Shown: in pieces, positions 2,679 through 32,591 of the stretch
Layout: every line of letters begins with the position of its first letter
Position numbering within the stretch: the first letter of the stretch is position 1
Assembly: GCA_023245355.1 (NCBI GenBank)
Contig: JAHFKN010000001.1
Location: forward strand, 203,528-267,527
Length of the DNA stretch: 64,000 nt
Origin: Candidatus Gottesmanbacteria bacterium
Lineage (GTDB): Bacteria > Patescibacteriota > Microgenomatia > UBA10105 > UBA927
Direction: 5' to 3'
Made by a program: the position numbers and the translations under genes
Notes under the pieces: model-generated
What the model saw: the letters and a program-made list of their open reading frames with translations, nothing else
What the model was told of the DNA's origin: nothing
The model's database searches: none

Positions 2679-3203
2679 GTGGAGAATGGATTTATTAGTA
2701 TGACGAAACCACCGTTTGAAGAGGTAGTTAAAAACTATATAAAACTAGTTTATTTCTTTGCCAAGAAATCCTTGTCTGATCAGGCAGACGTAGATGACAT
2801 GGTACAAGAAACCTTTTTGAAGGCTATGAAAACATACGATAAATTTAACTTTAAGAGTGAGGGTGAGTTGAAAAGCTGGTTATTAACCATTTGTCGCCAC
2901 CTGATCATCGATCAATTCCGCTCCCGCAAGCATACCGTGACCATGGATGACGAAAAAATGGATCTGTTTGGCAATGGTGAAACAGAAGAACTGCTGGAAG
3001 CCCAAATTGATAAAGAAGATAGCGTAAAGAAAATACAGAAGGCACTCGCCTTGTTAAAACCCACGGAAAAACAAATAATGAATCTGCGTGTATGTGAAGA
3101 GATGGAATTTAAAGAGATCGCCATTGCCCTATGTTCCAAAGAGGCTGCCGTTAAAATGCGATTTTATCGTGCATTAATTAAGCTCAAAGAATCACTGATA
3201 TGA
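2679..3203 (+). CDS. ECF-family sigma-70 factor
   Basis: Region 2 (LLTICRHLIIDQFRSRKH) and region 4 helix-turn-helix (EEMEFKEIAIALCSKEAAVKMRFYRALIKL) are both present. Confidence 0.8.
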   Translation: MENGFISMTKPPFEEVVKNYIKLVYFFAKKSLSDQADVDDMVQETFLKAMKTYDKFNFKSEGELKSWLLTICRHLIIDQFRSRKHTVTMDDEKMDLFGNGETEELLEAQIDKEDSVKKIQKALALLKPTEKQIMNLRVCEEMEFKEIAIALCSKEAAVKMRFYRALIKLKESLI

Positions 3204-4341: not shown

Positions 4342-5145
4342 GTGAAAAATAAAAAAGCTATGAAGTATCCAAAAAGAATGTTAGTAATTCTTCCCCTACT
4401 TGCTGTCTCCGCTTTTGTCGGCTTCGGTCTCGCAAAGACTGATACCGTCGGCGCACAGCAAGACCCAAAACAGGCGAGGATAGAAACTCTGCAAAAGAAG
4501 TACCTAGACGCAGTCGAAAATGCTAAGACAAATGGTGAGTTCACCACGAACCAATTCGGCGAGAAAGTCTACGCTGGTAAAACAGCTGACGACCTAAAGA
4601 GTCTAGAGAAAGAGGTTGGTACTGAGATACGAGAACTGACAGCGCGTCCCGCTGCGGATAGAGCCAAGGCCGTTGAAGCCGTCAATGGATGGAATGATAA
4701 ATTCCTCTATACGATAGATAATCAGCCAAAGCAAACTCTCCAATATGCTGGTCGGTCAGGACAAGTTCAAGGCAGCAAACTCATTGGCGCAGAGCGGTAC
4801 TTTTCGGAAGACTATCAATTCACAATCGACCCGCAAACCAACAAAATCGTTGAGATGTATCTACGTCCCAAAGAAGTTGGCGAACCGGCAGCGTTCGAAG
4901 ACATGACCCCACGCTTTACCGAAGCTCAGTTAGAGCAAAAAGCCCGACAATTGATCGAGGCACAAAACTTAGGCGTGAATCTAAGCTCTTTGAAGTTCGA
5001 GAAAAACCATAAGGTAGGAACCTTTTTCTACACATGGGAAGGTGAAAAGATAGCAGACGGAGTACAACCCTCGCTTTACGTGGCATTCACGCAAGGTGGG
5101 CAACTGATCGGCTACATCAACGCAGGCTTTTTTGACAAACTATGA
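4342..5145 (+). CDS. Secreted protein, paralog of the anti-sigma ectodomain
   Basis: Signal peptide MKYPKRMLVILPLLAVSAFVGFGLA. Shares blocks with the 3200..4108 ectodomain: ARPAADRAKAVEAV vs ARPAEAREQAVEAV, FTIDPQTNKIVEM vs FTIDTQTNQITEM, FTQGGQLIGYIN vs YTQGGQLISFLN. Confidence 0.6.
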   Translation: MKNKKAMKYPKRMLVILPLLAVSAFVGFGLAKTDTVGAQQDPKQARIETLQKKYLDAVENAKTNGEFTTNQFGEKVYAGKTADDLKSLEKEVGTEIRELTARPAADRAKAVEAVNGWNDKFLYTIDNQPKQTLQYAGRSGQVQGSKLIGAERYFSEDYQFTIDPQTNKIVEMYLRPKEVGEPAAFEDMTPRFTEAQLEQKARQLIEAQNLGVNLSSLKFEKNHKVGTFFYTWEGEKIADGVQPSLYVAFTQGGQLIGYINAGFFDKL

Positions 5146-5765
5146 AAAACATATTTTCAAAAATCTTAATAGCATTGGCGGTGATAGCGGTCATGGGCTT
5201 TACCAGCGTGAGTAGTGCATTGGCCTTTGGCGATGCATCTATTTACTGCACGGGTGGTGGCTACTTTGACAAATTCGGCCCCAGCCAATACTGGTCCGAA
5301 TTTACGAGTATGGGATGGTGTAACGCCCCAGCTGGCAACAACTGGTGCGAGAATGGACAATGTGCCCAAAACTCACCCTACAATACTGTGACTCGCAGTA
5401 TGTGGAGAACCTACTCAGGGAGTCAACAGAGTAACTACGCCCGTTGGAATATGGGTAACGATGGTGGTTATTGGTACTGGTTTGCCTTTATACCAAGTAA
5501 CTATGCGACCACCTCGAGGGCGCCGTATACGATTACCTACGCGGGTGGGAGCCAATACAACTTCACTGTTAACCAGAATGCTTATTCAAACATCTGGGTA
5601 ACTCCTGGTTCACGAACTGAGAATTTCACTCAGATCATGAATACATGGTTATCTGATGCGACGAGCGAAAGCCCGTCTCAGCAAATTGGTTTTGATGAGG
5701 TTCAGAAATGTTCTGAAGCAAGTCAATACAGTGCTTATTGTCCAGGCAACCATACCAGAAGGTAA
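5142..5765 (+). CDS. Secreted Cys/Trp/Tyr-rich protein, unknown function
   Basis: Signal peptide ILIALAVIAVMGFTSVSSALA. Start is translationally coupled to the previous gene (ATGA). The mature part is rich in C, W, Y and N. Confidence 0.5.
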   Translation: MKNIFSKILIALAVIAVMGFTSVSSALAFGDASIYCTGGGYFDKFGPSQYWSEFTSMGWCNAPAGNNWCENGQCAQNSPYNTVTRSMWRTYSGSQQSNYARWNMGNDGGYWYWFAFIPSNYATTSRAPYTITYAGGSQYNFTVNQNAYSNIWVTPGSRTENFTQIMNTWLSDATSESPSQQIGFDEVQKCSEASQYSAYCPGNHTRR

Positions 5766-5848
5766 TGGAGGAAGGTCAGGGCCAGCCCGTCAAAAGGCTG
5801 GCCTGACCCAGCAGAGAAAGAATATTTAAACTAAAATAAAAATGCAAT

Positions 5849-7050: not shown

Positions 7051-7124
7051 AGTTAGCCTAACGAATCAGTCGGGGCTTAGATTTATTTATTCGTAAAGAA
7101 TAGATGAACCTAAGCCCCTTTTTT
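7051..7124 (+). promoter_or_regulatory. Conserved box (GTTAG-C-CTAAC GAA N4 TCGGGGCT), long hairpin and U-run; copy 1
   Basis: Box at 7051-7076. Hairpin ggggcttag (7072-7080) pairs with ctaagcccc (7110-7118), then tttttt at 7119-7124. The same layout recurs at 14381-14461. Confidence 0.45.
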
Positions 7125-8978
7125 GTTATCTCTATGCCAGAAGTCATTGAAGAAAAAATATCAACCGAAAAAAACTACCAGCCTACCCCTGAAGAAGAAA
7201 AACTACTCATAAAATGGAAGGCCAGATTTAAACGTGCTAAAGAATTCCGTGAACCTTACCAAGCCAAGTGGTTGCGGATGTACCAACTCTACCGTGCCTA
7301 TCAACACAAGCAGAACTACGCTTATAACACCCGGCTGATGCCGCCGATCGCTTTTGAGATTGTTAAAACAGTGGTCTCTCGGTTGGCCACCGCTAAGCGC
7401 AAGACCACTATTATTCCCAGACACCAAGAGGATGTGAATTCAAAGGCATTAGGATCTTGGGGAAATCTGGTCAACTACGACTTTGACATTATTGATCTGA
7501 TCAAACGATTGCCTAACTGGATCGAATCTTCCGTTCTTTATGGAAACGGTATCGTTAAGCTTGCCTGGAAAGTCCTGAGTCGAAACGGCAAGGTAGTCTA
7601 TGACGATCCAACCATGGGACTTATTGACCTATGGGAACTGCTCCCAGCTCCAGAGACTGCAGATGACCTCCAGGATGGTTGCCCGTGGCTGATTCATCGT
7701 ATCGTTAAGCGGAAGGAAAAGATTGAAAAAGAAGAAACTGCCCGAGGTGAAAATAATATTTATAAGAACCTGGAGTTTTGTGAGCCGAAAATTGTTGAGG
7801 ATTGGAAAAAGGAACGGTATGAAATAAACGGTAAGAAAATGTCTCAGGTGGATGCCGGTACCAAGAAAGATGGTGGCGATGAGAAAATTGTCCCGGCCAA
7901 GTCAGACACCGAAAAACAACTAGAACTGTGGGAGTGTTGGGACTATGAAGAAGATAAACTGGTCGTTATTTGTAATGGCGAAATTCTTATTAGGGATGAC
8001 GAGAACCCATATCTGGGAGTAAACAACGGTCACATCTATGTTGACCTACCCGACATGCCACTCCTCTGGGAATTCTGGGCCACTGGCCATATCGAACCCG
8101 TCGAGACGACCATTCATGAAGTTGCTGACCTTAGAAACCAACGAATGGATGATGTGGTCTTAATGCTCGATCCTGTCGTTAAAATTCGTAAGGATTCCGG
8201 TATAACTAAAAACGATATCATCTTCTCTCCCGGCGCGACCTGGGAACTGAGAAAAATGGATGATGTGGTTATCGAAAGGCCACCAGAAATAAGCTTGATG
8301 GGAGTAAATGAAGATAAAATTATGCGAGATGAGATCTCCCGAACTCTGGCGCTTGGTGAATATATGCAAGGACAACCTCAGTCCCCCAATGAGCCGCTCG
8401 GGAAAGTGGCGGTGCTACTTGGTCAGAGTAACCTCCGATTAAGTATGAACGCCCAAAACATCGCGGTAGCACTAACCACAGTGGCCAATATCTTAATTCA
8501 ACTGAACCAGGAGTTTATAACGGAAGACAAATTATACCGGTTGGTAGGGAAAGAAGTCGACTTCAATGAGTTTAAAAAGGATGACAAAAAAGTGGTTGTG
8601 GACGCCATTGTTGAGGTGGAGCCGATTATACCTCCGGATAAAACCACGAGACTAAATCAAGTCCTTCTGATGTACGACAAGTTTATCGCCCAGGATAAGC
8701 CGGATCCGAACAATCCAGGGGAAGTAACACGCTGGTTGAAGCGTAAGCGCGAGCTTCAGAAGATGATTCTGGAAGAGCTGGATAAAGAGGAATATATAGA
8801 TGTGTTGCTGGGTCCGGAAGCAGAAGCTATGGCTCCACCTCAAACTAATAACGCACAAGCCCCCGTAACGCCAGCTGAGGGCCAAACTACACCAACAGAG
8901 CCAACTACAGCAGGTCCAAACAAAATTCAGCAGCTTATGGGAAAAATTCCAATTTTAGGGAAAATGCTGGGTGGTTAA
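7104..8978 (+). CDS. Portal (head-to-tail connector) protein; true start may be Met 7134
   Basis: About 620 aa, N-terminal EPYQAKWLRMYQLYR-type helix, Ala/Pro/Thr/Gln-rich C-terminus, placed between terminase and capsid. The track start contains the hairpin 3' arm and U-run. Confidence 0.5.
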   Translation: MNLSPFFVISMPEVIEEKISTEKNYQPTPEEEKLLIKWKARFKRAKEFREPYQAKWLRMYQLYRAYQHKQNYAYNTRLMPPIAFEIVKTVVSRLATAKRKTTIIPRHQEDVNSKALGSWGNLVNYDFDIIDLIKRLPNWIESSVLYGNGIVKLAWKVLSRNGKVVYDDPTMGLIDLWELLPAPETADDLQDGCPWLIHRIVKRKEKIEKEETARGENNIYKNLEFCEPKIVEDWKKERYEINGKKMSQVDAGTKKDGGDEKIVPAKSDTEKQLELWECWDYEEDKLVVICNGEILIRDDENPYLGVNNGHIYVDLPDMPLLWEFWATGHIEPVETTIHEVADLRNQRMDDVVLMLDPVVKIRKDSGITKNDIIFSPGATWELRKMDDVVIERPPEISLMGVNEDKIMRDEISRTLALGEYMQGQPQSPNEPLGKVAVLLGQSNLRLSMNAQNIAVALTTVANILIQLNQEFITEDKLYRLVGKEVDFNEFKKDDKKVVVDAIVEVEPIIPPDKTTRLNQVLLMYDKFIAQDKPDPNNPGEVTRWLKRKRELQKMILEELDKEEYIDVLLGPEAEAMAPPQTNNAQAPVTPAEGQTTPTEPTTAGPNKIQQLMGKIPILGKMLGG

Positions 8979-8983
8979 AATGA

Positions 8984-9373
8984 TCAGATGCTTTCTTGAT
9001 TGTGTGAAGCCAATTTAGAATCCTTAACGTTCCCAGTATTTAACGTACCTTTGGGCTCAATAAGAACTATGTGGACTTCTTCTTTTGCCTCGGGCTTGTG
9101 CTCGATTGGGTGGGGAATAATCACAAATTCACCCTCGTTTACTTGAACATCTTTATCTCGGAAATGAATTGTTAGTTGTCCCTTGATTACAAGAAATAAC
9201 TCATCTTCATTGTCGTGATGGTGCCAAACAAACTCTCCCTTGAGCTTTACAACTTGAACCTTATGGTTATTTAATTCACCGACGATCTTTGGATTCCAAT
9301 ACTCACTAAACAACGAGAGTTTATCTGCAATATTTACAACTTTCACGGAATAAGAGGTATTTTTCATAATCAT
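8984..9373 (-). CDS. Cupin-domain protein
   Basis: Cupin motifs: HHHDNEDELFLVIKG, then ...GEFVIIPHPIEH. Confidence 0.65.
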   Translation of the reverse strand: MIMKNTSYSVKVVNIADKLSLFSEYWNPKIVGELNNHKVQVVKLKGEFVWHHHDNEDELFLVIKGQLTIHFRDKDVQVNEGEFVIIPHPIEHKPEAKEEVHIVLIEPKGTLNTGNVKDSKLASHNQESI

Positions 9374-9439
9374 GAATATTGTAACAATTTTCTACATGAT
9401 TTGCTAGACTATATCAGTTGTAAGCAGTAACATAAGAAC

Positions 9440-10285
9440 ATGAACTACATAATTCGTCCAGCTACACGTAAGGAATTGTGTATCCCGATTGAGTGGGCGG
9501 CTAAAGAAGGTTGGAACCCAGGTCTTTTTGATGCTCGCGCTTTTTATTCTACGGATCCTCAAGGCTTTTTATTAGGATTGCTTGATGGAGAACCAATTGC
9601 TTCGATCTCGTCCGTTGCATATGATTCTAGTTTCGGTTTTCTTGGGTTTTATATTGTTAAACCCGAATATCGCGATAAAGGGTATGGCATTCAAATTTGG
9701 AATGCAGCAATAAAACATTTACCCACGCAAAACATTGGTCTAGATGGTGTACTAGCTCAACAGGAAAACTACAAAAAATCCGGTTTCAAATTAGCATATA
9801 GAAACATAAGATACGAAGGAATGGGTACTAGTGCTCATCAAGTGGATAATCCAAGTGTAATCCCCTTATCAAGCATTCAATTTGAACAGCTTTTTAAATA
9901 CGATAATCAAGTTTTTCCAACAAGCAGATCGGTATTTCTAAAAGAGTGGATCAAGCAATCGGAAAGCTTGGCAGTTGCTTACCAAAAAGATGGAAACCTA
10001 CTTGGATATGGGATGGTGAGAAAATGCCGAATCGGATATAAAGTGGGCCCTTTATTTGCTGACAATAAAGACATTGCAGATGTACTCTTTCAGAAAATGA
10101 GGTCTTTTGTTGGTCAAGATAAGCAAATATTTCTAGATACCCCAGGAGTAAATAAATCAGCAATTTTATTAGCTGAGAAGTATGGAATGAAACCAGTGTT
10201 TGAAACTGCCCGCATGTATACTAAAGACGTACCAAAAGTACAACTCAAAAAGGTTTTTGGAGTAACAACTTTTGAACTTGGATAA
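9440..10285 (+). CDS. GNAT-family N-acetyltransferase (two-lobed)
   Basis: GFYIVKPEYRDKGYGIQIWNAAIKH matches the acetyl-CoA binding motif A (R/Q-x-x-G-x-G/A). Confidence 0.6.
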   Translation: MNYIIRPATRKELCIPIEWAAKEGWNPGLFDARAFYSTDPQGFLLGLLDGEPIASISSVAYDSSFGFLGFYIVKPEYRDKGYGIQIWNAAIKHLPTQNIGLDGVLAQQENYKKSGFKLAYRNIRYEGMGTSAHQVDNPSVIPLSSIQFEQLFKYDNQVFPTSRSVFLKEWIKQSESLAVAYQKDGNLLGYGMVRKCRIGYKVGPLFADNKDIADVLFQKMRSFVGQDKQIFLDTPGVNKSAILLAEKYGMKPVFETARMYTKDVPKVQLKKVFGVTTFELG

Positions 10286-10305
10286 GCATCTTGAACACGT
10301 TAAAT

Positions 10306-10333
10306 TTGACAAAAGACGAATTTTTTGTATAAT
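10306..10333 (+). promoter_or_regulatory. Sigma-70-type promoter with extended -10
   Basis: TTGACA at 10306-10311, a 16-nt spacer, then TGTATAAT with TATAAT at 10328-10333. Confidence 0.55.
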
Positions 10334-10339
10334 ATACTC

Positions 10340-10500
10340 AATACTTAGCTGTGAAGGTCTTTGGCAAGCTGGAGCTGAGCATTCTAAAAGCGGTCTGAAC
10401 TTAAGCGATTATCGATAGTACAGACAATTAGGGTGGAACCACGGGTTAAAAGAAAACTCGTCCCTTTGTATAAGAAATTATATGAAGTGACGAGTTTTTT
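10340..10500 (+). promoter_or_regulatory. T-box riboswitch leader 1 (transcription-terminating type)
   Basis: Core AATTAGGGTGGAACCACGG at ~10426-10444. A terminator follows: cucguc...gacgag stem then UUUUUUU at 10494-10500. Stem-I-like ggcaagctggagc carries a GGC (Gly) triplet. Confidence 0.6.
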
Positions 10501-10671
10501 TGTTACTTCATATAACGACAAGTTAATAGTAGCGATGAAAGGCCTGGCAACCTGGAGCTACACCAACAGTTAAAGAGGGTAAGTTTACTGGAAATCATGA
10601 CTTACCAATTAGGGTGGAACCGCGACCATATATGGCCGTCCCTAAGCGAAAGCTTATGGAGGCATATATGG
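10501..10671 (+). promoter_or_regulatory. T-box riboswitch leader 2 (candidate translational, SD-sequestering type)
   Basis: Second core AATTAGGGTGGAACCGCGACC at 10607-10627. ccatatatggcc (10626-10637) can pair with ggcatatatgg (10661-10671), burying SD GGAGG (10658-10662) and ATG 10668. No U-run follows. Confidence 0.5.
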
Positions 10672-11921
10672 ATACACAACCATACTACAAAACAATAATT
10701 GAACAGATTGACAAGCATACTGCTTATAGGCAGGAATGCCTTAATCTGATCGCTTCAGAAAATGTCTGCAGTCCTGCTGTGGCCAAGATTCTATCTTCTG
10801 ATTTAACCAATCGTTACTCTGTTGGACGTCCTCGCGCGAGATGGTTCCCAGGATTACAGTACTACGACAAAGTTGAGGAAATTGCGGAAAAGCTTTCACA
10901 AAAACTATTCCATGTCCAGTATGCCAATGTTCAAGCCCCTACGGGAATGGTGGCTAATATGGCCGCTTATTTAGCGGTGCTTAAACCCAACGACCTGGTG
11001 TTAGCTCTGCGCGTTAAACACGGAGGACACTATAGTCATGTTGCCGAGAATATATTCAAAAGCTTCAACATCCGCGTTGAGGATCTTCCCTTTGATGAAC
11101 AGTCATATTCTGTAGACATTGAGAGAGCCATTGATCTCATTAGGGTTAAGAAACCACAAATGATTATTCTTGGAACTTCGGAGTTTTTATTCCCAGCACC
11201 CATTAGAGAATTAAGGCAGGTGTGCAACAAAACAAACACTAAAATTCTTTATGATGCCTCACATGTCTCAGGACTCGTGGCTGGACAAACTTTCCAAAAT
11301 CCAATGGCAGAAGGAGCAGATATTCTCACAATGAGCACCAATAAGACATTGGCTGCCCCAAGTCATGGACTTGTGGCCTGCAACGACACAGTCAAGTATC
11401 AGGCTGACTTTGAACATGCAATTACCCCTCTCCTAACGTCAAATCACCATGCGCACCATGTCGCTGCTTTGGCCATGACCTTGGCAGAGTTTGATGTTTT
11501 CGGACACGAATACGCTGCTCAAATTATTATGAATGCAAAAACTTTGGCACGAGCCCTTTATAACCAAGGGGTAAAGGTTTTATGCCCTGAAAAGGATTTT
11601 ACCGAGAGTCACACTGTTTTGATTGATACTGTGACCTCATCAAAAGAAGCAGTGCAGAAGTTGGCTGAGGCAAACATTATGACAAATTCGTTTCAACTTC
11701 CCTGGAATGAAGATGGGTTTGAAAGTGGAATCCGAATAGGAACAAACGAAATAACCAGACTTGGAATGAAAGAGTCAGAGATGAATGTTGTTGCCGATTT
11801 AATAGCAGCTGTTTTATTGAAAAAACAATCGATCGCTGAGATTAAACGGAAAGCACAAAATCTTAGATTGTCTTATCAGACAGTTAATTATTGTTTTAAT
11901 CCAGCTCAATTAAGTAGCTGA
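10668..11921 (+). CDS. glyA: Serine hydroxymethyltransferase-like PLP enzyme
   Basis: LIASENVCSPAV matches SHMT LIASENF; HGGHYSHV matches GGHLTHG; STNKTL sits at the PLP-lysine position. Start set at Met 10668 behind GGAGG. Confidence 0.7.
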   Translation: MDTQPYYKTIIEQIDKHTAYRQECLNLIASENVCSPAVAKILSSDLTNRYSVGRPRARWFPGLQYYDKVEEIAEKLSQKLFHVQYANVQAPTGMVANMAAYLAVLKPNDLVLALRVKHGGHYSHVAENIFKSFNIRVEDLPFDEQSYSVDIERAIDLIRVKKPQMIILGTSEFLFPAPIRELRQVCNKTNTKILYDASHVSGLVAGQTFQNPMAEGADILTMSTNKTLAAPSHGLVACNDTVKYQADFEHAITPLLTSNHHAHHVAALAMTLAEFDVFGHEYAAQIIMNAKTLARALYNQGVKVLCPEKDFTESHTVLIDTVTSSKEAVQKLAEANIMTNSFQLPWNEDGFESGIRIGTNEITRLGMKESEMNVVADLIAAVLLKKQSIAEIKRKAQNLRLSYQTVNYCFNPAQLSS

Positions 11922-11935
11922 AGGAGGTAAATTAT

Positions 11936-12478
11936 ATGGCAAAACCAGAACAGTCAGAATCAATGCAAGAATTCGAACAACGCTGTATTGAGACAGTGAA
12001 GCGAATGCGTGCTCAGGCTCACAAGGTGTTAGATAGGGCTGGAACAGTTCATAAAGCTCAACCGCTCAAGAAGTGGGAAAAGATTGTTTATCCCCTTCTG
12101 GGAATGAAGCCCGAAGGTTATATGGAGTTTGATTCGGCCAACGATCCACGATTAGCGATCGTCACAAGGGCGGCTGCTGGAGGACTGGTAACCCCAAGAG
12201 TTAGAGTTCTGGCACCATCTGAAAGAAACGAAATGTCAGCTATGGAAGTTCGACTGTCCGGCAAACAGCCAGAGACTGGAAGAAATGTCGACATCATGAG
12301 TGTTGACCTCCCAGAGGGATCAAATAGTGCAGTACAAACAAAAGTAATTTTGTGGACCGCACCCTTACCAGGGAGGATTCCATTTTATGAAGTCATGGAT
12401 TCAAACTTTGCCGAAGTAGTAGACTTAACAATAAGAACTCTGGAACACATTAATAAATGTTTATCTGAAAGGAAATAA
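11936..12478 (+). CDS. Hypothetical protein between glyA and glyQS
   Basis: ORF with a GAAGGAGG ribosome-binding site, sitting in the same operon. No motif recognised. Confidence 0.45.
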   Translation: MAKPEQSESMQEFEQRCIETVKRMRAQAHKVLDRAGTVHKAQPLKKWEKIVYPLLGMKPEGYMEFDSANDPRLAIVTRAAAGGLVTPRVRVLAPSERNEMSAMEVRLSGKQPETGRNVDIMSVDLPEGSNSAVQTKVILWTAPLPGRIPFYEVMDSNFAEVVDLTIRTLEHINKCLSERK

Positions 12479-12480
12479 AT

Positions 12481-13860
12481 ATGGACACAACAATGCAAAA
12501 AATCGTCAGTTTATGTAAAAGAAAAGGGTTTGTTTATCCAAACTCTGAAATTTACGGAGGAATTCAGGGGTTCTATGATTACGGACCACTAGGAGCCGAA
12601 CTACAAAATAACATCAAGCGGGTTTGGTGGAAATGGATGACCCAACTCCATGATGATGTCTATCCAATTAACGGAGCAATCATCACCCATCCGAAGGTTT
12701 GGGAAGCATCAGGACACGTTCAGAACTTCACCGATCCGTTAGTCGACTGCAAAAAATGTCATAAACGTTTCCGAGCCGATCACTTGGTTGAGGAATTCCT
12801 CACAGAGGATGCTGGAACTGCTAGTCAAAATCGCTTGGATCAGATAGCAGCAGAACTTAAATCAAGACACATTGTTTGCCCTGAGTGTGGAGGAGAGTTT
12901 ACCGAGGTCCGCAAATTCAATCTTATGGTTGAAACTTCCCTTGGGGTTGTTGAAGGCGAAAAGATGACGGCTTATCTCAAGGGGGAGGCATGCCAAACGA
13001 TCTACCTGGATTACCAGAATGTGCTTAATTCGACTAATGCCAAAATTCCTTTTGGGATATGTCAAATCGGGAAGGCTTTCAGAAATGAAATCACCCCAGG
13101 ACATTTTTTATTTCGTCAGCGTGAGTTTGAACAGTGGGATCTCCAATGGTTTACCAATCCCAAAGAAATGGATAAATGGTATGAGTACTGGAAAGCAGAA
13201 AGAATGATGTGGTATCAAAGCCTAGTGAATCATAAAGATCGTCTGCGCTTTAGACAACACGATCAAAACGAACTTGCTCATTACGCGAAAAAGGCATTCG
13301 ATATCGAGTATGAGACTCCATTTGGATGGAAAGAATGGGAAGGAATCCACTGGCGTGGAGACTGGGATTTGTCCCGTCATGGGCAATACAGTGGGAATGA
13401 TTTTACCTATACTGATCAAAAAACAGGTGATAAATTTATTCCTTGGATTGTCGAAACATCAGGAGGAGTTGATCGCACTTTCCTTTTCCTGCTCATTGAT
13501 GCTTACGATGAAGAGGTCGTAGATGGGAAAACGAGAGTGGTTCTACATTTACGACCAGACCTAGCTCCGTACAAAGTAGCGGTCTTCCCGTTGGTATCCA
13601 ACAAAGAAGATATTGTCGAAAAGGCAAAGTCAATCTACAGAGCATTAAAACCTAGCATTGCAACCATTTGGGACGATATCGGGAATGTTGGAAAGAGATA
13701 TCGAAGACAAGATGAAGTTGGTACTCCGTGGTGTGTCACGGTTGATTACCAAACACTTCAGGACGATACGATAACAGTTCGAGATCGAGACACTATGAAA
13801 CAAGAAAGAGTGAAGGTATTAGATCTGGAATACTTTTTTGCCGAGAAGTTGAAAATTTAA
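12481..13860 (+). CDS. glyQS: Glycine--tRNA ligase (dimeric class II GlyRS)
   Basis: Class II motif 2 QIGKAFRNEITPGHFLFRQREFEQWDLQWF. N-terminal GFVYPNSEIYGG...YDYGPLG is typical of alpha2 GlyRS. Confidence 0.85.
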   Translation: MDTTMQKIVSLCKRKGFVYPNSEIYGGIQGFYDYGPLGAELQNNIKRVWWKWMTQLHDDVYPINGAIITHPKVWEASGHVQNFTDPLVDCKKCHKRFRADHLVEEFLTEDAGTASQNRLDQIAAELKSRHIVCPECGGEFTEVRKFNLMVETSLGVVEGEKMTAYLKGEACQTIYLDYQNVLNSTNAKIPFGICQIGKAFRNEITPGHFLFRQREFEQWDLQWFTNPKEMDKWYEYWKAERMMWYQSLVNHKDRLRFRQHDQNELAHYAKKAFDIEYETPFGWKEWEGIHWRGDWDLSRHGQYSGNDFTYTDQKTGDKFIPWIVETSGGVDRTFLFLLIDAYDEEVVDGKTRVVLHLRPDLAPYKVAVFPLVSNKEDIVEKAKSIYRALKPSIATIWDDIGNVGKRYRRQDEVGTPWCVTVDYQTLQDDTITVRDRDTMKQERVKVLDLEYFFAEKLKI

Positions 13861-13867
13861 AACAGGA

Positions 13868-14254
13868 TTACTCATCGTACTGGCTTAGAAGTGCTTCCAA
13901 GATGGGGTGGATTTGTCTGTCGACCATCAACCTCCCCTTTTCGGTATCCTTAATGACACCCGTTTCTTTTGCTATCTGCAGAAGTCGTGAGATTTCCTCA
14001 TCTCTCAGTGGTTTACCTTCGTCATCAACTCCAACAACCGCTTTATACGCAGCTTCATCAAATGTTGCTGGTTCAGGTGCAAATGGGGCTAGATAGAGAA
14101 TGCCTGTTAGAACTCTCTCTCTGCCTGCATTTCCAAATAGTTGTCTATCTTTTTCTGTGAGCAATGAATCTGCAATCAATTCAAATTGAGCCCTAGTAGT
14201 ATCAGGTTTTAAAAGTTGTCCAAGTTTTGGTAATGGTTGTTCGGCTTTTTCCAT
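13868..14254 (-). CDS. Hypothetical protein
   Basis: 128-aa ORF on the minus strand, reading toward the gly genes. No motif recognised. Confidence 0.35.
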   Translation of the reverse strand: MEKAEQPLPKLGQLLKPDTTRAQFELIADSLLTEKDRQLFGNAGRERVLTGILYLAPFAPEPATFDEAAYKAVVGVDDEGKPLRDEEISRLLQIAKETGVIKDTEKGRLMVDRQIHPILEALLSQYDE

Positions 14255-14380
14255 ATAAATAATCCTTAAAAGATATAAAGATTATAACATTATATGGCCT
14301 GAAGTTCAAAAAATAACACAAAAAGACATAAACATTATTGAAGTCTCCATTACCCCTTGATTACTATTAAACCATTAAGA

Positions 14381-14461
14381 AGTTAGCCTAACGAAACTAT
14401 CGGGGCTGTGGCTTCTGAATATACGCAAGATGCGTGTGTTTAGAAGTTACAGCCTTTTTTT
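14381..14461 (+). promoter_or_regulatory. Conserved box, long hairpin and U-run; copy 2
   Basis: agttagcctaacgaaactatcggggct at 14381-14407. Hairpin ggctgtggcttct (14404-14416) pairs with agaagttacagcc (14442-14454), then ttttttt at 14455-14461. Confidence 0.45.
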
Positions 14462-14472
14462 AAAGGAAAAAT

Positions 14473-14775
14473 ATGAATAACGATACAACTAATCCTCAAA
14501 ACGACAATATGGTTAACCAAGATACCCAGTCTGTTGGCTTTAAAAAAGGTACCGAACCAAATAAAGACGAAGCCTGGAAAAAAGTAGAGGCGGTATTTAA
14601 CGCTGCAAAGAACGCCTTCATTGATAAAAATTCACCGTTTGCTGACGTCCTCGATAGTTTAATTGCTACCTTGATGGATATTCGGGCAGCTGAAAAACAA
14701 GGGTTAAGCGGTATGGGAACTGATAACCCACAAATGGATATCCCTGCCCCAACTGATAATGGGCAAAATTTATAA
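14473..14775 (+). CDS. Hypothetical small protein
   Basis: ORF directly downstream of the conserved box with an AGGAAA-like ribosome-binding site. Confidence 0.4.
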   Translation: MNNDTTNPQNDNMVNQDTQSVGFKKGTEPNKDEAWKKVEAVFNAAKNAFIDKNSPFADVLDSLIATLMDIRAAEKQGLSGMGTDNPQMDIPAPTDNGQNL

Positions 14776-15902: not shown

Positions 15903-17069
15903 ATGCCATCAGCAACAGGAATAAAAGGAACAGGAAATTTAGGAGTCTTACGTAAGTACGACGTCGCCGACGTGGTCTCGCTACTCGACGTTAATCGTTA
16001 TCCTCTTTTGGCCATCTTGACCAATGCAGGAAAAGATCCAGCAAGTGGTGAAGGTAAAGCCTTGAAAAAGAGTGAAGCGGTAGACCCGGAGTTTAAGTGG
16101 TATGAAGATGACTTTGGTCGTCGCCAATTAACCGGTTCAGCAACTGTCGATCCCGATGGAGGGAACTTGACTGTCACCGGTCAATCACAGTACTTACAAG
16201 TTGGAGATGTAATTTTGGCTGCTGCCCAGAAATGGGTCTTCCAAGTTACTGCTATTGTCGATGCCAACACCGTCACGGTTGGTCCCGAATTAGGAGGGGC
16301 AACCGGCGCAGCTGCTTCGGCAGTTGGAGATGTCTGGCTTATCGGAAACGCTAATGAAGAGGGTGCAGGATTAAGAGATATAAAGTCAACGATCATCCAA
16401 GAAATATCGAACTACTGCCAAATCTTCAGAACGCCAGTCGGTATTACTGAAACATCCAAAAACACTAAGGGATTAACCAAGGAAAACGACTTTGATTTTC
16501 AAAGGCGAAAGAAAGGTATCGAGCACTATGTCGATATCGAAAGATCGTTCTTATTTGGCAAGAAAGGCATCATCACTACAGGGACTCATCCAAAACGATT
16601 CACTGCTGGTATCTTGTCTAGGATTGCAACCTACGCTACAGCGAGTGTTGATACAGAATCAGAATTTGATGCTTGGTTGGAGAGCTTATTTGCACACGGA
16701 AATACAGAAAAATATTTGCTTGCATCTGCGGCCGTGGTTTCCATGGTCAACGGTTGGGCAAAGGGAAAGCTACAGATCGTAAGTCCAACAAAGGCTTATG
16801 GACTGCGAATCGTAACCTACGATTCTCCACACGGAACGCTACACATGATCAAACATCCATTATTAACTGGAACGACATACGGAAATTATGCTGTCGGTTT
16901 GGACATGGAATGTTTGACCTACCGCTACTTGAGCAATCGAGATACCAAGCTTTTGACTAACCGTCAGGCCAATGGTGAAGATAGTCAAGTCGATGAATAT
17001 CTGACCGAATGCGGTCTGCAAATGGAGCAAGAGTCACGCCATGCCATTATGAGCATCGGTGCGCTCTAA
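15903..17069 (+). CDS. Major capsid protein (putative)
   Basis: 388 aa, follows the scaffold, strong GGGAGGTGA ribosome-binding site, a terminator-like hairpin pair downstream, and Gly/Thr/Ala-rich beta-type composition. Confidence 0.5.
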   Translation: MPSATGIKGTGNLGVLRKYDVADVVSLLDVNRYPLLAILTNAGKDPASGEGKALKKSEAVDPEFKWYEDDFGRRQLTGSATVDPDGGNLTVTGQSQYLQVGDVILAAAQKWVFQVTAIVDANTVTVGPELGGATGAAASAVGDVWLIGNANEEGAGLRDIKSTIIQEISNYCQIFRTPVGITETSKNTKGLTKENDFDFQRRKKGIEHYVDIERSFLFGKKGIITTGTHPKRFTAGILSRIATYATASVDTESEFDAWLESLFAHGNTEKYLLASAAVVSMVNGWAKGKLQIVSPTKAYGLRIVTYDSPHGTLHMIKHPLLTGTTYGNYAVGLDMECLTYRYLSNRDTKLLTNRQANGEDSQVDEYLTECGLQMEQESRHAIMSIGAL

Positions 17070-28000: not shown

Positions 28001-29385
28001 ATATCGAATCATCAAAAGGGCTCGCTGTCGCTTCTGAACAACTTTTCACCCCTGAGTGGATGAATCGAGCAAAAATTGTCGTCAATCCCTTTCAGCTCAT
28101 CAGTACCTTTTCAGAAGCAATAGAACTGGCTCCCCGATTGGGGGTTTATAAAAAAGGAATTGCTCAAGGAGCTACTCGACTTGAAGCAGCTTACGAAGCA
28201 CGCAATGTGACGGTTGATTTTGCAAAGGCTGGAATTGAAGGTCGACTGATTAATATGTGGATTCCCTTTGTGAATGCTCGTTGGCAAGGACTTCTGACCA
28301 TTGGCAAAGTGATGAAGGAAAATCCATTTAGAACGACGGTGCGAGCTTTGGCCTTGACGGTCCTGCCTGGTGTAGCTACTTATTTTTATAACGTCATGAA
28401 CCATGAAGATCTTTGGGACGATATCCCCCAATGGGCCAAAGATACATATTTTATTGTGATTGTAGGTGAAGGCCAAGATAGCCAAGGAAATCGGGTGCCG
28501 AAAGTAGTTCAAATCCCTAAAGGTGATATGGGGACTATATTTTTCAACCCGTTAATGTATGCCTTGGAATACGTGCGAAAACAGGAGCCAACTAACCTCT
28601 TTAAGTTAGGACTCGAGTGGATGAGCCAATTGTCACCGGTCTCGTTTACCAGAGATGGAGAATTATCAGCTCAGTCTTTCCTTGGGAGCGCACTACCTCC
28701 AGCGTTAAAAGTGCCATTGGAGCTGGCGACAAACACTAATCTTTTCACCGGATTCCCAATTGTGCCTCAGCGCTTAGAGAAAGTGACACCAACTGAGCAA
28801 TATGATGAGAAAACACCACAAATAGCAGTTACGGCCGGTCGAGCTTTGGGCATCAGTCCGATGAAGCTGACCCATGCAATTTCAGGATTAGCCGGAAGTT
28901 TTTCTCGTCAAGTAATGAACCCCGCCGACATTATCAATTTAACGACACAGCGCTTTTATCGGCTTCAGGGTGGGCAAAAACAACAGGCAGCCTGGGATAT
29001 TAAGTATGACGCTGAAGTGGGCTACAACACCACGAGGCTGCAGATGAAACGGCTGATCGAGCAGGGTCAGCTTCAGCAAGCCCAACAGATGGCGCTCAAA
29101 TGGAATCAGGAGGCCGAGAAACTCATTTCCCAGATAGTTCCACTCCTAATGAAAGATGACCCCAAGGAAGCGGCTTCATTTCAAAGTAGCATCACTTTTG
29201 ATGCTGCAGATTTGCAGCGACTCCTGAAGACAACGCTTCCTGGTGGTGTACCACAAAATGCTGGAACTGATCAAACACTAATTCCCCTTCAGCCTGGACT
29301 TAATACTAATTCGACCATGGGACAACTATTCCAGGGTGGTCAACAAAATAGTGGCGACGCTATAAGGAGGTTAATTTACAAATGA
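25099..29385 (+). CDS. Large virion protein (~1,430 aa): internal core, ejection or tape-measure-like
   Basis: Giant ORF in the tail block with long helical segments and a Pro-rich linker PPGKPPRPPQEV. Start set at Met 25099 after the previous stop. Confidence 0.4.
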   Translation: MIMDNFLEQLKKNITSSFANTKQSVGDIFGKAQTSLTNLVRGGQQKVDEVIKPLQYDIAIPGPTSGSYKPFKNLYLETAAQALGVGARDTDVLERLPSATFGALKGAGNGLGEALSFGWWKPEIKYADDIEKQAGDMTEVEFNVLGTIGTFLVGGELVQGALRGVPLLARVATVAPRTFNVLSTGLTFAGLTQIQKDEAQKNAAQRAKDFVGDFALGGAFSIAGMKTSFLKSSAIIGPATYVTSLLKGESNGDALKDTTAMMGLHSLNFAVAKFLPNGSEIENRIEKAASEQLKITKAEAMEYLGISDKATAEEMKQAWKNKVVDITKRFPAQANQTPQEMGVFNQAWNTANRAYEFLAKVSNPEGYTGKSFAQEFQDLYYQLWKDVPDKRSAIVKAVRSLPAGLSVRATLNDGQRNEIVTTLGGEEAKTRLGKVAELTDADLVSVAMENKITVTPSKTTVPETIQLPATEQTAEASAQLKTNLSLQEQKAVKAAEIRDKYITPEEKELADAEKIPSIGDILQSQTFQDRLQGKVTAPTTPRADQLRELPPGKPPRPPQEVSLDGAPPSPEGSALDEIDKMVGKISTAKSILGNIKNAIETFPRMFTDRFAPIKNFEDQITKLQGQPINIDSSPYVAARMYAGRFGIVEGNFKDLYNILQPVRKLRADFTRFVLSERAIERAERGFDNPNGVTKETAEQALVELKDKVGDKAFKAFEQVGQGIQNWSIKSILQPMKDAGILGKEAFTSIVENNKRWMPFHVLEYMPSVEQADQMAVGSETFSVSKQGVIKSLEGTEKIIRDPFMSIIDNLTKSVSLVERNKVAQKLIDLRNSHPDAAKEFIKFLPDGLRPPAEWDAISVFIDGKVTKWAVPKDLSEAMHALSSAETGLMGKMILASSKAFKAGTTSLYFPFTLSNAIRDYQTASIVSKWGFNPANWLSGFKDGLKAAFKFDSKAYDEFMTNKGGYGGYIESSKGLAVASEQLFTPEWMNRAKIVVNPFQLISTFSEAIELAPRLGVYKKGIAQGATRLEAAYEARNVTVDFAKAGIEGRLINMWIPFVNARWQGLLTIGKVMKENPFRTTVRALALTVLPGVATYFYNVMNHEDLWDDIPQWAKDTYFIVIVGEGQDSQGNRVPKVVQIPKGDMGTIFFNPLMYALEYVRKQEPTNLFKLGLEWMSQLSPVSFTRDGELSAQSFLGSALPPALKVPLELATNTNLFTGFPIVPQRLEKVTPTEQYDEKTPQIAVTAGRALGISPMKLTHAISGLAGSFSRQVMNPADIINLTTQRFYRLQGGQKQQAAWDIKYDAEVGYNTTRLQMKRLIEQGQLQQAQQMALKWNQEAEKLISQIVPLLMKDDPKEAASFQSSITFDAADLQRLLKTTLPGGVPQNAGTDQTLIPLQPGLNTNSTMGQLFQGGQQNSGDAIRRLIYK

Positions 29386-30485
29386 AACAACTAACACTAC
29401 CGATTATTTTTAGTCAAAATGATAGCCGATGGAAAAATAGTCCTCTGGGAACCAGAGGCACAATTGGCTTATATGGCTGCCTGGAGAATGATGCCACGAT
29501 GGTGACCAATTATTACGGCTTCCAGGAAACGCCGCTCACCTTAAATGAGAAGCTAACCAACAATGCTGGATATCAGGATGGGAATAAATTTGTCTGGAGC
29601 GTCTTTGCTCGATTATTCGGTCTTAAGTATTCTGGCCAATGGTCCAATACCGGAGCGTTGACCCAAGCCCAAATGGACCAGATCCGAAAAGCTATTGATG
29701 GTGGTTACCCGGTGTTTCTCCAAATCGACACGATTCCAGCCACTTCAGCTCTGGATGAACATTGGATCCTGGCTATTGGGTATGAAGGTGATGACTTTCT
29801 TATTCAAGATCCATGGGACGGAGCGACTAAACGAATCACCAGCTGGGGTGTGACTGCTCAGAAGCTAATTTACGCCTGGTGTTGGTTTGAAGGAAAGCCA
29901 GTCAAAGTAGAGGTAGCCGATGGCTGTCTTGTTCCTAACACTCCGGAATGGCGTACGAAGTACGAACAAATCGTCGCATCAGCCACTAAGTGGGCAGATA
30001 CCCTCAAGATTTTAGAGATAACCGATGACCCCAACGCTACCCCTACAGACAAAATTAAAAGCACTATGGCAGGGTATAAAAGTCGCGAAACCGACCTATC
30101 TAACAAGCTAAATGATAAACAGGGATTGCTTGATAATGCCAACAAGGAGATTGAGAACCGAACCGAGCAAGTAAGCAGACTCGATGGCGATCTGCTAGAG
30201 AAGGATAAATACTATAAATCACTGGTTGACGCACTAAATAAGCAAGTCAAAAACGGCTCAGATGCCCTACCCTTGGCACAGGCTAGGGTTGGGGTGCTTG
30301 AGGGGGAACTGGATGAAGCCAATAAAGCTAAGGGTCGTGCCTTGCTAGAGGCTCAACAGAACAAAAGCCAATTGGAAGCCTGCCAAAAAGGAACCATTGC
30401 TCCTACACCCCAATTAATTCTCAAGTTGACTATCCAATACATTACAAATTTAGTAACCAAAAAAGGAGGTGAGAACAATGGATAA
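29382..30485 (+). CDS. Papain-like cysteine peptidase (C39-like or CHAP-like), endolysin candidate
   Basis: Gln...Cys...His in order: SQNDSRWKN (oxyanion Gln), LYGCLENDATMV (Cys), EHWILAIGYEGDDFLIQDPWDG (His/Asp), then a coiled-coil tail. Confidence 0.45.
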   Translation: MKQLTLPIIFSQNDSRWKNSPLGTRGTIGLYGCLENDATMVTNYYGFQETPLTLNEKLTNNAGYQDGNKFVWSVFARLFGLKYSGQWSNTGALTQAQMDQIRKAIDGGYPVFLQIDTIPATSALDEHWILAIGYEGDDFLIQDPWDGATKRITSWGVTAQKLIYAWCWFEGKPVKVEVADGCLVPNTPEWRTKYEQIVASATKWADTLKILEITDDPNATPTDKIKSTMAGYKSRETDLSNKLNDKQGLLDNANKEIENRTEQVSRLDGDLLEKDKYYKSLVDALNKQVKNGSDALPLAQARVGVLEGELDEANKAKGRALLEAQQNKSQLEACQKGTIAPTPQLILKLTIQYITNLVTKKGGENNG

Positions 30486-31646: not shown

Positions 31647-32591
31647 ATGCTCCAGCATATCCTGCTTTATATCGTATCGTTTGTCGGCATATGGATCGGT
31701 GCGGGGCTTGCGATATCCTCTGTCGAAAAACTTTCCCACCGGCTGCGCCTTTCTTCTTTTATCGTTTCGTTTCTCGTGCTGGGCTTTTTTACGTCTATCA
31801 GCGAATTTTCCGTAGGCATCAATGCGGTCCTCGATAACGACCCGGAAATATTTGTCGGAAATTTAATCGGCGCTTCTATCGTGCTGTTTATGCTGGTCAT
31901 TCCCTTACTGGCCATAACCGGCAAACAAATCCACATAAGCAAGGAGCTACGGGGCATCAATCTGGTATTGCCGCTTATCGTCGTAGCCGTTCCTGTCCTG
32001 CTATCGCTGGACGGTGTTGTCAGCCGGATTGATGCGGCAATATCGCTCATTCTGTATGGCATCTCTGCGTTTATCATCGAACAAAAACGCGGGTTTACCA
32101 GCAATCCTGCGCTGCTCAAACAGTTCGCGAAAGCGTCGGTCGGCCTAGAGTTCGGAAAAATTATTGCCGGTATCGGTGTAATTTTCGCTTCCAGTCATTT
32201 GGTCGTTACGGAAACGCTGTATTTTTCCGGCGCATTCGGACTTTCACCGTTTCTCATCAGCCTGCTGCTGGTTGCTATCGGCACGAACCTGCCGGAGTTG
32301 TCTTTTATCTTCCGGTCGTTATTTATGAAAAGCAATCAGGTGGCATTCGGGGATTATCTGGGGTCTGCCGCATTCAATACGTTCCTGTACGGGTTTCTGA
32401 CGCTATTTTACGGGCGGACAATTCTACTGACCAACAGTTATGTCGTGAGTCTTACGTTTCTTATCGTCGGACTTATACTGTTTTATATTTTTGCCCGAAG
32501 CAAACACACGATTTCCAAAAGCGAAGCGGCCGGATTATTTGCTATCTACGTCCTTTTCCTCTTTACCGAGTATTATCTGCACAAAGGCTAA
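31647..32591 (+). CDS. Ca2+/Na+ antiporter (CaCA/YrbG family)
   Basis: Two alpha-repeats: GNLIGASIV and AIGTNLPELSF...GDYLGSAAFNTFL. About ten TM helices. Confidence 0.7.
   Translation: MLQHILLYIVSFVGIWIGAGLAISSVEKLSHRLRLSSFIVSFLVLGFFTSISEFSVGINAVLDNDPEIFVGNLIGASIVLFMLVIPLLAITGKQIHISKELRGINLVLPLIVVAVPVLLSLDGVVSRIDAAISLILYGISAFIIEQKRGFTSNPALLKQFAKASVGLEFGKIIAGIGVIFASSHLVVTETLYFSGAFGLSPFLISLLLVAIGTNLPELSFIFRSLFMKSNQVAFGDYLGSAAFNTFLYGFLTLFYGRTILLTNSYVVSLTFLIVGLILFYIFARSKHTISKSEAAGLFAIYVLFLFTEYYLHKG

Follow-up and report, generated by a model that had tools for sequence, protein, structure and literature searches.

Tandem minimal T-box leaders predicted to control a prophage-borne glycine operon in the Candidate Phyla Radiation

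In the T-box riboswitch biology has its classic case of one structured RNA being recognised by another, by means of several distant contacts. Aminoacyl-tRNA synthetases and other translation-related auxiliary genes are also encoded by phages, mostly by jumbo phages. Both subjects meet in the locus described here, which belongs to a 64,000-nt stretch of a Candidatus Gottesmanbacteria contig (JAHFKN010000001.1; the whole stretch is called the window). In this locus two T-box leaders in series, called copy 1 and copy 2, precede genes for serine hydroxymethyltransferase (SHMT), an orphan protein (ORF180) and glycyl-tRNA synthetase (GlyRS) within a phage region.

Several T-box designs depart from the classical one. 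Glycine T-boxes that lack Stem II but keep a long Stem I have been described (PMC11404447). The actinobacterial ileS T-boxes with an ultrashort Stem I are, as summarised in PMC7583486 from Sherwood et al. 2015, translational elements with an apical specifier, in which Stem II and the IIA/B pseudoknot are essential for tRNA binding. Tandem T-boxes are reported mainly from Bacillota (thrS/thrZ, trp and ilv-leu operons) and, among aminoacyl-tRNA synthetase genes, only for ThrS (PMC12452182). In the full-text literature searched, whose coverage is incomplete, nothing was found linking T-box riboswitches to Saccharibacteria, the Candidate Phyla Radiation (CPR), Patescibacteria or phage auxiliary genes, nor any description of the reduced class presented below, of CPR T-boxes or of T-box-regulated phage cargo. 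The database TBDB makes no mention of phage or Patescibacteria, and its translational model is applied to Actinobacteria only.

The analysis of this locus indicates that it is likely to be a phage-borne glycine supply operon (SHMT, ORF180 and GlyRS) that would be switched on by uncharged tRNA-Gly(GCC) through two minimal T-boxes. A wider proposal, for which we consider the chances to be evenly balanced, is that CPR bacteria and their mobile elements use a minimal T-box class of about 100–120 nt, composed of a kink-turn (K-turn), an apical specifier loop, Stem III and the discriminator. Such elements would make two tRNA contacts (anticodon and NCCA) and work co-transcriptionally, the elbow-docking platform and Stem II being dispensable. 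The phage would have captured this switch together with GlyRS and SHMT, tying the module to host tRNA charging.

Anatomy and predicted folds of the tandem leader

The 360-nt interval between the stop of a GNAT acetyltransferase gene (10285) and the SHMT ATG (10668) holds the promoter and both leaders. The elements of the operon are the following, all on the + strand:

10306–10333, +: sigma-70-type promoter, TTGACA (10306–10311), 16-nt spacer and TATAAT (10328–10333)
10344–10379, +: copy 1 mini Stem I, with 6-bp basal helix CUUAGC/GCUGAG and K-turn (bulge UGU, tandem G.A)
10380–10391, +: copy 1 linker, 12 nt, A-rich, between Stem I and Stem III
10392–10425, +: copy 1 Stem III, outer helix GUCUG.AC/GU.CAGAC, internal loop UUAA and small inner hairpin (minimum free energy fold)
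10430–10465, +: copy 1 antiterminator, A1 AGGG/CCCU, 7-nt bulge UGGAACC (10434–10440), A2 ACGGG/CUCGU
10456–10501, +: copy 1 intrinsic terminator, ACUCGUC...GACGAGU, inner 10-bp helix, stem 10456–10495, U7 at 10495–10501
10529–10561, +: copy 2 mini Stem I, 5-bp basal helix GUAGC/GCUAC, K-turn (bulge GAU), upper helix A-U, G-C, G-C
10562–10577, +: copy 2 linker, 16 nt, A-rich, ahead of Stem III
10578–10606, +: copy 2 Stem III, 8-bp outer helix GGUAAGUU/GACUUACC, inner UGG/UCA helix with conserved apical motif
10611–10643, +: copy 2 antisequestrator, A1 AGGG/CCCU, bulge UGGAACC (10615–10621), A2 GCG.CCA-UAUA-UGG.CGU
10626–10671, +: copy 2 sequestrator hairpin, CCAUAUAUGGCCGUCCCUAAGC-GAAA-GCUUAUGGAGGCAUAUAUGG, no U-tract
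10668–11921, +: SHMT, 417 aa (Pfam SHMT, 6e-64; NCBIfam NF000586, 380 bits, cut-off 335)
11936–12478, +: ORF180, orphan protein of 180 aa that travels with the cassette, between SHMT and GlyRS
12481–13860, +: glycine--tRNA ligase (GlyRS), single-chain dimeric (alpha2), 459 aa (NCBIfam NF003211, 620 bits, cut-off 312)

A previous sequence-only reading of this DNA had proposed most of this arrangement. The TTGACA promoter that it placed upstream of the leaders is a perfect match, TTGACA-16-TATAAT being the sole 12/12 consensus match within 9300–14500, and transcription is predicted to start near 10340, about 7 nt past the -10 box. The two T-box cores that it saw about 180 nt apart, AAUUAGGGUGGAACC(A/G)CG, were located at 10426–10443 and 10607–10624 (separation, 181 nt), and the GGC that it noticed in both Stem-I-like regions was found at 10363–10365 in copy 1 and at 10546–10548, in the apical loop, in copy 2, followed in each by a conserved A (10366 and 10549). 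The stem plus U-run terminator ascribed to copy 1 is present as well. With respect to the genes, the SHMT-like product is a genuine SHMT, since its NF000586 score exceeds the cut-off, and its start codon had to be moved from 10669 to 10668. The synthetase, which had been called glyQS, is a single-chain dimeric GlyRS (NF003211 / TIGR00389 glyS_dimeric) and not the two-subunit GlyQ/GlyS. The expectation that the regulated genes serve glycine synthesis and tRNA-Gly charging was right for both enzymes.

The ORF between the SHMT and GlyRS genes, already regarded as unknown, showed no family match in Pfam, NCBIfam or PHROG searches. Only seven ORF180 homologues were found, every one in relatives of the cassette, and the AlphaFold2 model of the protein (pLDDT 38.7) is unusable. 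A further ORF, at 5243–5785 (- strand) of locus L083 (labels of this type denote the loci compared), is 27% identical to ORF180 and occupies the same slot between T-box and GlyRS in an unrelated genome.

Both copies share one Stem I plan: a basal helix of 5–6 bp, the K-turn (3-nt bulge, tandem G.A), a 4-bp helix and a 6-nt loop ending in GGCA. The 4-bp upper helix of copy 1 has one bulged U and its apical loop reads UUGGCA; the copy 2 loop position 5' of UGGCA is C, A or U among close relatives (window, L133, L138). The whole Stem I measures 33–36 nt, and the AG bulge and distal loop, which form the elbow-docking platform, are absent from both copies. Stem III abuts the discriminator, and the linker of 12 or 16 nt is all that lies between Stems I and III. 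Since transcription is predicted to begin only about 3 nt ahead of copy 1, and 27 nt separate the end of the copy 1 terminator from copy 2, there is no room for a longer Stem I in either case. The copy 1 Stem III is homologous to Stem III in the first copies of L129, L060, L085 and L100. Its GAA/AGUA segment was considered as an S-turn or cryptic Stem II and rejected, because relatives show a plain helix there (CUGAC/GUUAG in L129).

The whole window was searched on both strands with all 4227 Rfam families, and the T-box family RF00230 gave end-to-end matches significant by E-value in both copies, copy 1 scoring 46.6 bits (E 4.4e-7) and copy 2 40.2 bits (E 2e-5). The K-turn, specifier plus A, T-box bulge, A1 and A2 all align in both, and the core alignment, AAUUAGGGUGGAACC(A/G)CG...CGUCCCU, has a posterior probability of about 1 in both. 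In contrast, cmscan deletes 70 of the 78 Stem I positions, all of Stem II and the IIA/B pseudoknot. The low scores (40–47 bits, against a gathering score of 93) are thus due to the truncated Stem I and the absence of Stem II and IIA/B. Taking a sub-gathering score as proof that no T-box is present was rejected in view of the E-values and of a calibration with authentic glycine T-boxes: the long-Stem-I glycine leaders of Phascolarctobacterium succinatutens and a relative reach 62.9–67.8 bits, and the long-Stem-I glycine T-boxes found in relatives of the cassette 70.8–81.7 bits, also under the gathering score. For authentic long-Stem-I glycine T-boxes of cultured Negativicutes (L066, L088 and others), the range is in round numbers 63–68 bits. 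Surveys carried out at the RF00230 gathering threshold will therefore systematically under-count glycine T-boxes.

By their discriminator, specifier, K-turn and switch logic, the leaders can be assigned to the T-box family. They have neither the long Stem I platform of classical T-boxes nor the Stem II of the ultrashort class. Thus, the earlier description of glycine-specific tandem T-box leaders stands, but they are not classical ones, their ultrashort Stem I and missing Stem II having gone unnoticed.

The predicted folds of each copy are mutually exclusive. The 5' strand of the copy 1 terminator shares bases with the 3' strand of its antiterminator, and the strands of the two copy 2 folds are shared in the same manner. 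The off-fold is the more stable one in both, with -26.7 kcal/mol for the terminator versus -9.1 for the isolated antiterminator, and -28.3 for the sequestrator versus -7.6 for the antisequestrator. In copy 2, 10626–10647 pairs with 10652–10671 around GAAA, which buries the Shine-Dalgarno (SD) sequence GGAGG (10658–10662) and the AUG (10668–10670); the probability that the region from SD to AUG is unpaired in the ensemble is about 0. This bears out the earlier claim that copy 2, which has no U-run, forms a hairpin hiding GGAGG and ATG. As modelled, the switch energetics of both copies are typical for T-boxes.

Relatives of the leaders and covariation of their helices

Two pattern scans, with patterns derived from the window, were run over species-representative genomes and metagenomes. 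The patterns fixed GGCA, CUGGAG, UGA and GGGUGGAACC, and limited the spacing between Stem I and the T-box. The scans separate two groups, namely canonical long-Stem-I glycine T-boxes in Negativicutes and other Bacillota, and mini-Stem-I elements. About 30 distinct elements of the second group were found in Saccharibacteria, Daviesbacteria, unclassified Patescibacteria and a few metagenome-assembled genomes (MAGs) labelled otherwise, directly 5' of GlyRS genes whose products are 42–55% identical to the phage enzyme. In most chromosomal cases GlyRS is directly next, with no ORF180 between. The housekeeping CPR GlyRS genes in the RecO-GlyRS-MraZ loci L063 and L064 have no T-box. Three loci from MAGs labelled Gammaproteobacteria or Pseudomonadales (L081, L083 and L106) carry CPR-type mini T-boxes and GlyRS 44–48% identical to the phage enzyme, and their taxonomic labels may reflect mis-binning. 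A loose architecture pattern applied to IMG/VR gave 55 matches, all of them chance matches in coding sequence.

Compensatory changes are found in both types of helix. Across 32 distinct mini Stem I sequences, 91.3% of the cells are paired and seven of the nine pairs show compensatory changes. None of 500 shuffles (mean 0.267) reaches their covariation score of 0.569, and slid partners give at most 0.115; RNAalifold, run unguided, returned the same helices. The K-turn, AGC-NNN-GA ... GGA-GCU, is present in both copies and in all 32 homologues, and its flanking helices covary. For Stem III, which MAFFT could not align set-wide, covariation was restricted to a subgroup of 11 homologues of the copy 2 type; 95% of cells are paired and seven of eight outer pairs are compensatory (0/500 shuffles), the inner helix and loop showing no variation across the 11 sequences.

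A covariance model (R1) was built from 20 chromosomal CPR mini T-boxes, the window and every relative of the cassette being left out. It recovers copy 1 at full length with 91.8 bits (E 9e-21) and copy 2 with 73.0 bits (E 3e-16), scores to be read with the fact that the training set was pattern-retrieved. In the rest of the 64 kb its only other match is the discriminator of a host isoleucyl-tRNA synthetase (IleRS) leader.

Tandem pairs of mini copies were found at no fewer than 11 loci. Three of the tandem leaders upstream of GlyRS, those of L085, L100 and L130, have a first copy that ends in a terminator and a second that ends in a hairpin over AGGAGG without a U-run. The mixed transcriptional and translational leader foreseen by the sequence-only reading is arranged as predicted, but it is not peculiar to the phage: since these three loci share the order, terminator-then-sequestrator is a recurrent CPR design. 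Five second copies were found by position, four of them outside the search pattern (L126 copy 2 matched it). Among these four pattern-independent copies, three have GGC-A and one GGA-A, all of them glycine codons. In L100 (~5130–5300, - strand) the second T-box has the loop CUGGAAA (GGA-A) and the first copy GGC-A; this tandem may sense two tRNA-Gly isoacceptors (UCC and GCC).

The comparison with close relatives of the cassette suggests a different change in each of the two copies. L129, whose SHMT is 87% identical to that of the window, has a copy 2 identical to the window's through the start codon. The discriminator and terminator of its copy 1 are also homologous, but about 90 extra nt form a canonical long Stem I; this comparison indicates that copy 1 of the window gained its mini Stem I recently, in replacement of a long one. 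That mini Stem I shares the 18-mer GUCUUUGGCAAGCUGGAG with Daviesbacteria-type leaders. As for copy 2, its orthologues in L060, L131 and L128 have a U-tract terminator on the same hairpin (GCCGUCCCUAGC...GCUAGUGGCGGC-U6), whereas the window clade has lost the U-tract, shows GGAGGC in the 3' strand and has its helix lengthened over the AUG. To judge from these alignments, a terminator has been converted into a sequestrator there. In L062 (2550–2820; compare L060, 2550–2970) there is one chimeric T-box, in which the long Stem I of copy 1 is fused to the terminator of copy 2 at the core; evidently the two core repeats recombined and the sequence between them was deleted.

These orthologous terminators are also what could be argued in favour of a copy 2 that does not act on translation, being instead a second transcriptional attenuator with a non-canonical terminator, or a processing or stability element. 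We judge this improbable: the window clade has lost the U-tract, GGAGG stands 5 nt before the AUG with the helix extended over the latter, and the independent second copies of L085, L100 and L130 enclose AGGAGG without U-runs.

Other points weigh against the proposed switching as a whole. Neither copy reaches the Rfam gathering score of 93 bits, and both lack the Stem I distal platform together with Stem II. Transcriptional T-boxes generally require a long Stem I, and a truncated Stem I without Stem II binds tRNA barely detectably (PMC7583486); current models would therefore not lead one to expect that copy 1 senses tRNA efficiently during transcription. The mini Stem I of copy 1 could be a tolerated loss and not an adaptation. 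The copy 2 sequestrator is invariant in all close relatives and so has no covariation support of its own. The invariance of the fixed bases, the short spacing, part of the model score and the missing Stem II across the set follow from the way in which the patterns were built; helix covariation is not a product of pattern retrieval. Finally, the window contains no tRNA-Gly gene, and the discriminator bases available are those of related CPR loci: the tRNA-Gly(GCC) of L135 and the tRNA-Gly(CCC) of L060 carry U73, complementary to the UGGA bulge.

Some of these points would be accounted for if mini T-boxes were functional but anticodon and NCCA were insufficient, a third contact being supplied by the Stem III apex (UGGA..AUCA, copy 2 type), by a K-turn-binding protein or by ORF180. 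This is an alternative to be taken seriously, although we regard it as less likely than not. It would reconcile the elements with the published view, in which Stem II is required by an ultrashort Stem I and the elbow platform by transcriptional T-boxes (PMC7583486), and it fits with the strictly kept K-turn, with the invariant inner helix and loop of Stem III in the 11 sequences and with the ORF180 homologue that L083, like the cassette, has between T-box and GlyRS. However, most chromosomal mini T-boxes precede GlyRS directly, and the apical motif of Stem III is absent from the copy 1 type. Moreover, the strength of the GGC:GCC duplex is thought to let glycine T-boxes dispense with Stem II (PMC11404447), and a further reduction is conceivable.

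The recent replacement of a long Stem I in copy 1, the low Rfam scores and the poor tRNA binding predicted by current models (PMC7583486) could also be read as decay. In that case, the mini copies would be blind to tRNA. Copy 1 would attenuate transcription and copy 2 would damp translation, both constitutively, so that cargo expression is kept low and fixed. This is distinctly improbable, since the same architecture is kept upstream of diverged GlyRS genes (42–55% identity), compensatory changes maintain both Stem I helices and Stem III, and the UGGA bulge, the discriminator and the mutually exclusive folds are intact in all members. The pattern-independent second copies still present glycine codons, and a dead leader with a terminator of -27 kcal/mol would silence an essential chromosomal GlyRS. 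Regulation by tRNA-Gly through both copies remains the preferred reading.

Origin of the cassette and its phage and host context

GlyRS homologues form a series from 95% down to 73% identity, followed by enzymes of named Patescibacteria at 65–73%, which points to the host lineage as the source of the cassette. The leader type seems to be native to CPR bacteria, where by its genomic position it would control chromosomal GlyRS, the prophage having taken the cassette as cargo. The T-box-SHMT-(ORF180)-GlyRS cassette behaves as a mobile module within CPR and is also present on a conjugative-type element. For instance, in L058 (1–13377) it lies between GmrSD/HNH/AAA defence-like genes and type IV secretion system pilin/TraC-like genes, and in L060 (44–1594) and L061 (32–1057) it stands beside a serine recombinase or a transposase. 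No nucleotide match was found in INPHARED. Searches by tblastn with GlyRS returned only 46–47% matches, in fecal contigs and a Staphylococcus record, and the GlyRS search of IMG/VR found none.

Bases 1 to about 31,000 of the window are phage (GC content about 43%), and from about 32,000 the sequence is chromosomal (about 52%). The phage part encodes the terminase subunits TerS and TerL, a sigma factor, portal, SU10-type capsid, adaptor, endolysin and tail fibre; the right half contains YceG, tRNA-Thr, IleRS, FtsZ and MurG genes. The features that surround the operon are as follows:

2679–3203, +: phage sigma-70-family factor (phrog_1740, 4e-25)
7104–8978: portal
8979–14472: cargo interval of 5.5 kb, from the portal gene to the o14473-scaffold-capsid block
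8984–9373, -: cupin, in the cargo interval
9440–10285, +: two-domain GNAT acetyltransferase, in the cargo interval
13868–14254, -: 128-aa ORF, in the cargo interval
15903–17069: SU10-type capsid

Exact-sequence look-ups place phage and host proteins on one NCBI contig, and FtsZ shares 92% identity with proteins that bear the names Candidatus Gottesmanbacteria and Patescibacteria group. Both facts indicate an integrated prophage in a CPR bacterium. The phage neighbours on which the sequence-only reading relied are present, the right half being chromosomal. With these neighbours, the RF00230 matches significant by E-value and the GGC specifier of both copies, none of the outcomes that this reading had named as refuting it was observed. 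The left end of the prophage lies outside the window. On the other side, the phage/chromosome junction lies between a Peptidase_C39-like gene (29382–30485) and a Na/Ca exchanger gene (31647–32591), where GC jumps from 43% to 52%. A tRNA-Thr(CGT) gene (34531–34604) is near the junction; to judge from collinearity, the end of a 41-kb Logan contig that carries this phage too would fall close to this tRNA gene. The operon promoter is a perfect housekeeping-type sigma-70 promoter, although the phage encodes its own sigma-70-family factor.

The cassette had been taken for cargo between portal and capsid, and the relatives of the phage agree with this. In IMG/VR, 25 viral contigs of up to about 62 kb have a capsid 57–87% identical and a syntenic TerL-portal-scaffold-capsid block, and neither GlyRS nor a mini T-box was found among them. 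The gap between portal and scaffold is only 0.3–0.8 kb in L152, L153, L158, L159, L162 and L163, where o14473/scaffold comes next. In L149 (1730–8500) it is filled with HEPN, PAP2, DsrE, a P-type cation ATPase, a low-molecular-weight phosphatase and PadR. Since the gap is variable, 8979–14472 can be considered a cargo hot-spot and the T-box operon one acquisition among many.

That the region might be an ordinary chromosomal island, with the T-box operon as a host gene cluster, is suggested by the chromosomal right half of the window, into which the element is integrated, by the host-phylum type of the cassette GlyRS, and by the lack of any identified integrase or att site in the window. This explanation is hardly credible in view of the canonical order of TerS, TerL, portal, SU10-type capsid, adaptor, endolysin and tail fibre around the cassette, of the syntenic viral contigs and of the lower GC content.

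A third compact T-box-like leader is located on the host chromosome (55825–55941, - strand), upstream of IleRS (52927–55812, - strand). RF00230 matches it with 33.5 bits (E 1e-3 for the whole window, 5e-6 locally). Its bulge, UGGUACC, fits A73 of tRNA-Ile; Stem I is nearly all deleted, and Stem II (AGUAG) and IIA/B-like segments align. Both in this leader (55792–55845, - strand) and in L083 (~5700–5800, - strand) the 3' strand of the terminator holds the SD and the U-tract abuts the AUG, so a single hairpin could both terminate transcription and mask the ribosome-binding site.

Proposed mechanism and comparison with described systems

The tRNA binding, the switching and the physiological role proposed here are transferred by homology from characterised T-boxes, whose mechanism is established (PMC7583486, PMC7778990), to the leaders whose anatomy, folds, covariation and genomic context are described above. 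Transcripts would begin about 7 nt beyond the -10 box. The apical loop of copy 1, held on a K-turn-based mini Stem I, would pair through its GGC with the GCC anticodon. By pairing with the UGGA bulge, the free 3' UCCA of uncharged tRNA-Gly would stabilise the weak antiterminator, so that the polymerase passes 10501; charged tRNA would be unable to do so and transcription would stop at that point. In copy 2, the default hairpin would hide the SD and start codon of SHMT until uncharged tRNA-Gly stabilises the antisequestrator and exposes both. Two serial gates at different levels are expected to tighten control (PMC12452182). One of them being irreversible and co-transcriptional and the other reversible and post-transcriptional, induction could be tight and steep and occur only when glycyl-tRNA charging falls. 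Glycine would then be formed from serine and loaded onto tRNA-Gly by the products of the operon, which could keep translation going in a host of minimal biosynthesis while it is infected or lysogenic. An alternative role could be that of a second, starvation-induced GlyRS for the lysogen.

According to current structural and kinetic work, transcriptional T-boxes need the long Stem I in order to catch the tRNA in time, and ultrashort variants rely on Stem II. A conserved, covarying family without a long Stem I and Stem II, placed before strong terminators of an essential synthetase, challenges this view, and the mini T-box would be the smallest natural tRNA-sensing switch. L129 and the window offer a natural control, with the same discriminator combined with a long or a mini Stem I. 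The known range of T-boxes would also come to include the Candidate Phyla Radiation, in which they escape detection at standard thresholds. That a small CPR phage has a riboswitch-controlled glycine module suggests a limiting role for tRNA-Gly charging in these metabolically minimal cells when they are infected or lysogenic. In addition, the minimal element could serve as a compact part for synthetic tRNA-responsive regulation.

Among the closest described systems are the glyQS-type glycine T-boxes of Bacillota (glyQ/glyQS of Bacillus subtilis and Geobacillus kaustophilus; RF00230). They have in common with the present leaders a GGC specifier followed by a purine, a basal K-turn, no Stem II or IIA/B, Stem III beside the discriminator, a UGGA (which here would match U73 of tRNA-Gly), terminator/antiterminator competition (predicted, in copy 1) and a glycyl-tRNA synthetase as target. 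However, the distal two-thirds of Stem I (AG bulge, distal loop and elbow platform) are gone here, and an apical loop of 6 nt, not an internal one, carries the specifier. In addition, the synthetase is single-chain, the units are in tandem, and the host is a CPR bacterium or its phage and not a member of the Bacillota.

As in the tandem T-boxes of Bacillota (PMC12452182), two complete sensor-plus-platform units of the same specificity stand in series. The tandems reported so far are transcriptional at both units and essentially confined to Bacillota, whereas the ones described here have GlyRS and SHMT as targets, are predicted to act at different levels and belong to a CPR/phage lineage.

The cassette resembles other phage-encoded aminoacyl-tRNA synthetases in being a host-derived translation enzyme carried as accessory cargo. 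It differs from them in the small size of the phage, to judge from the related IMG/VR contigs, and in that the gene comes with its native riboswitch and an SHMT partner. Because GlyRS is carried under this native control, its expression would be conditional on host tRNA charging.

Finally, the actinobacterial ileS T-boxes (Mycobacterium tuberculosis, M. smegmatis and Nocardia farcinica), as far as they are covered by the summary in PMC7583486, share with the present elements the ultrashort Stem I, the apical specifier, the lack of an elbow platform and SD sequestration (predicted, in copy 2). They keep Stem II, with its S-turn and string of five purines, and the IIA/B pseudoknot, where the CPR elements have 12–16 unpaired nt. 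Here the specificity is for Gly and not Ile, and copy 1 and most CPR relatives use predicted intrinsic terminators, which are not reported for an ultrashort Stem I. Thus, to judge from their sequences, the CPR elements combine the reduction seen in glycine T-boxes, the loss of Stem II, with that seen in ileS T-boxes, the loss of the long Stem I, and most of them do so in front of a terminator.

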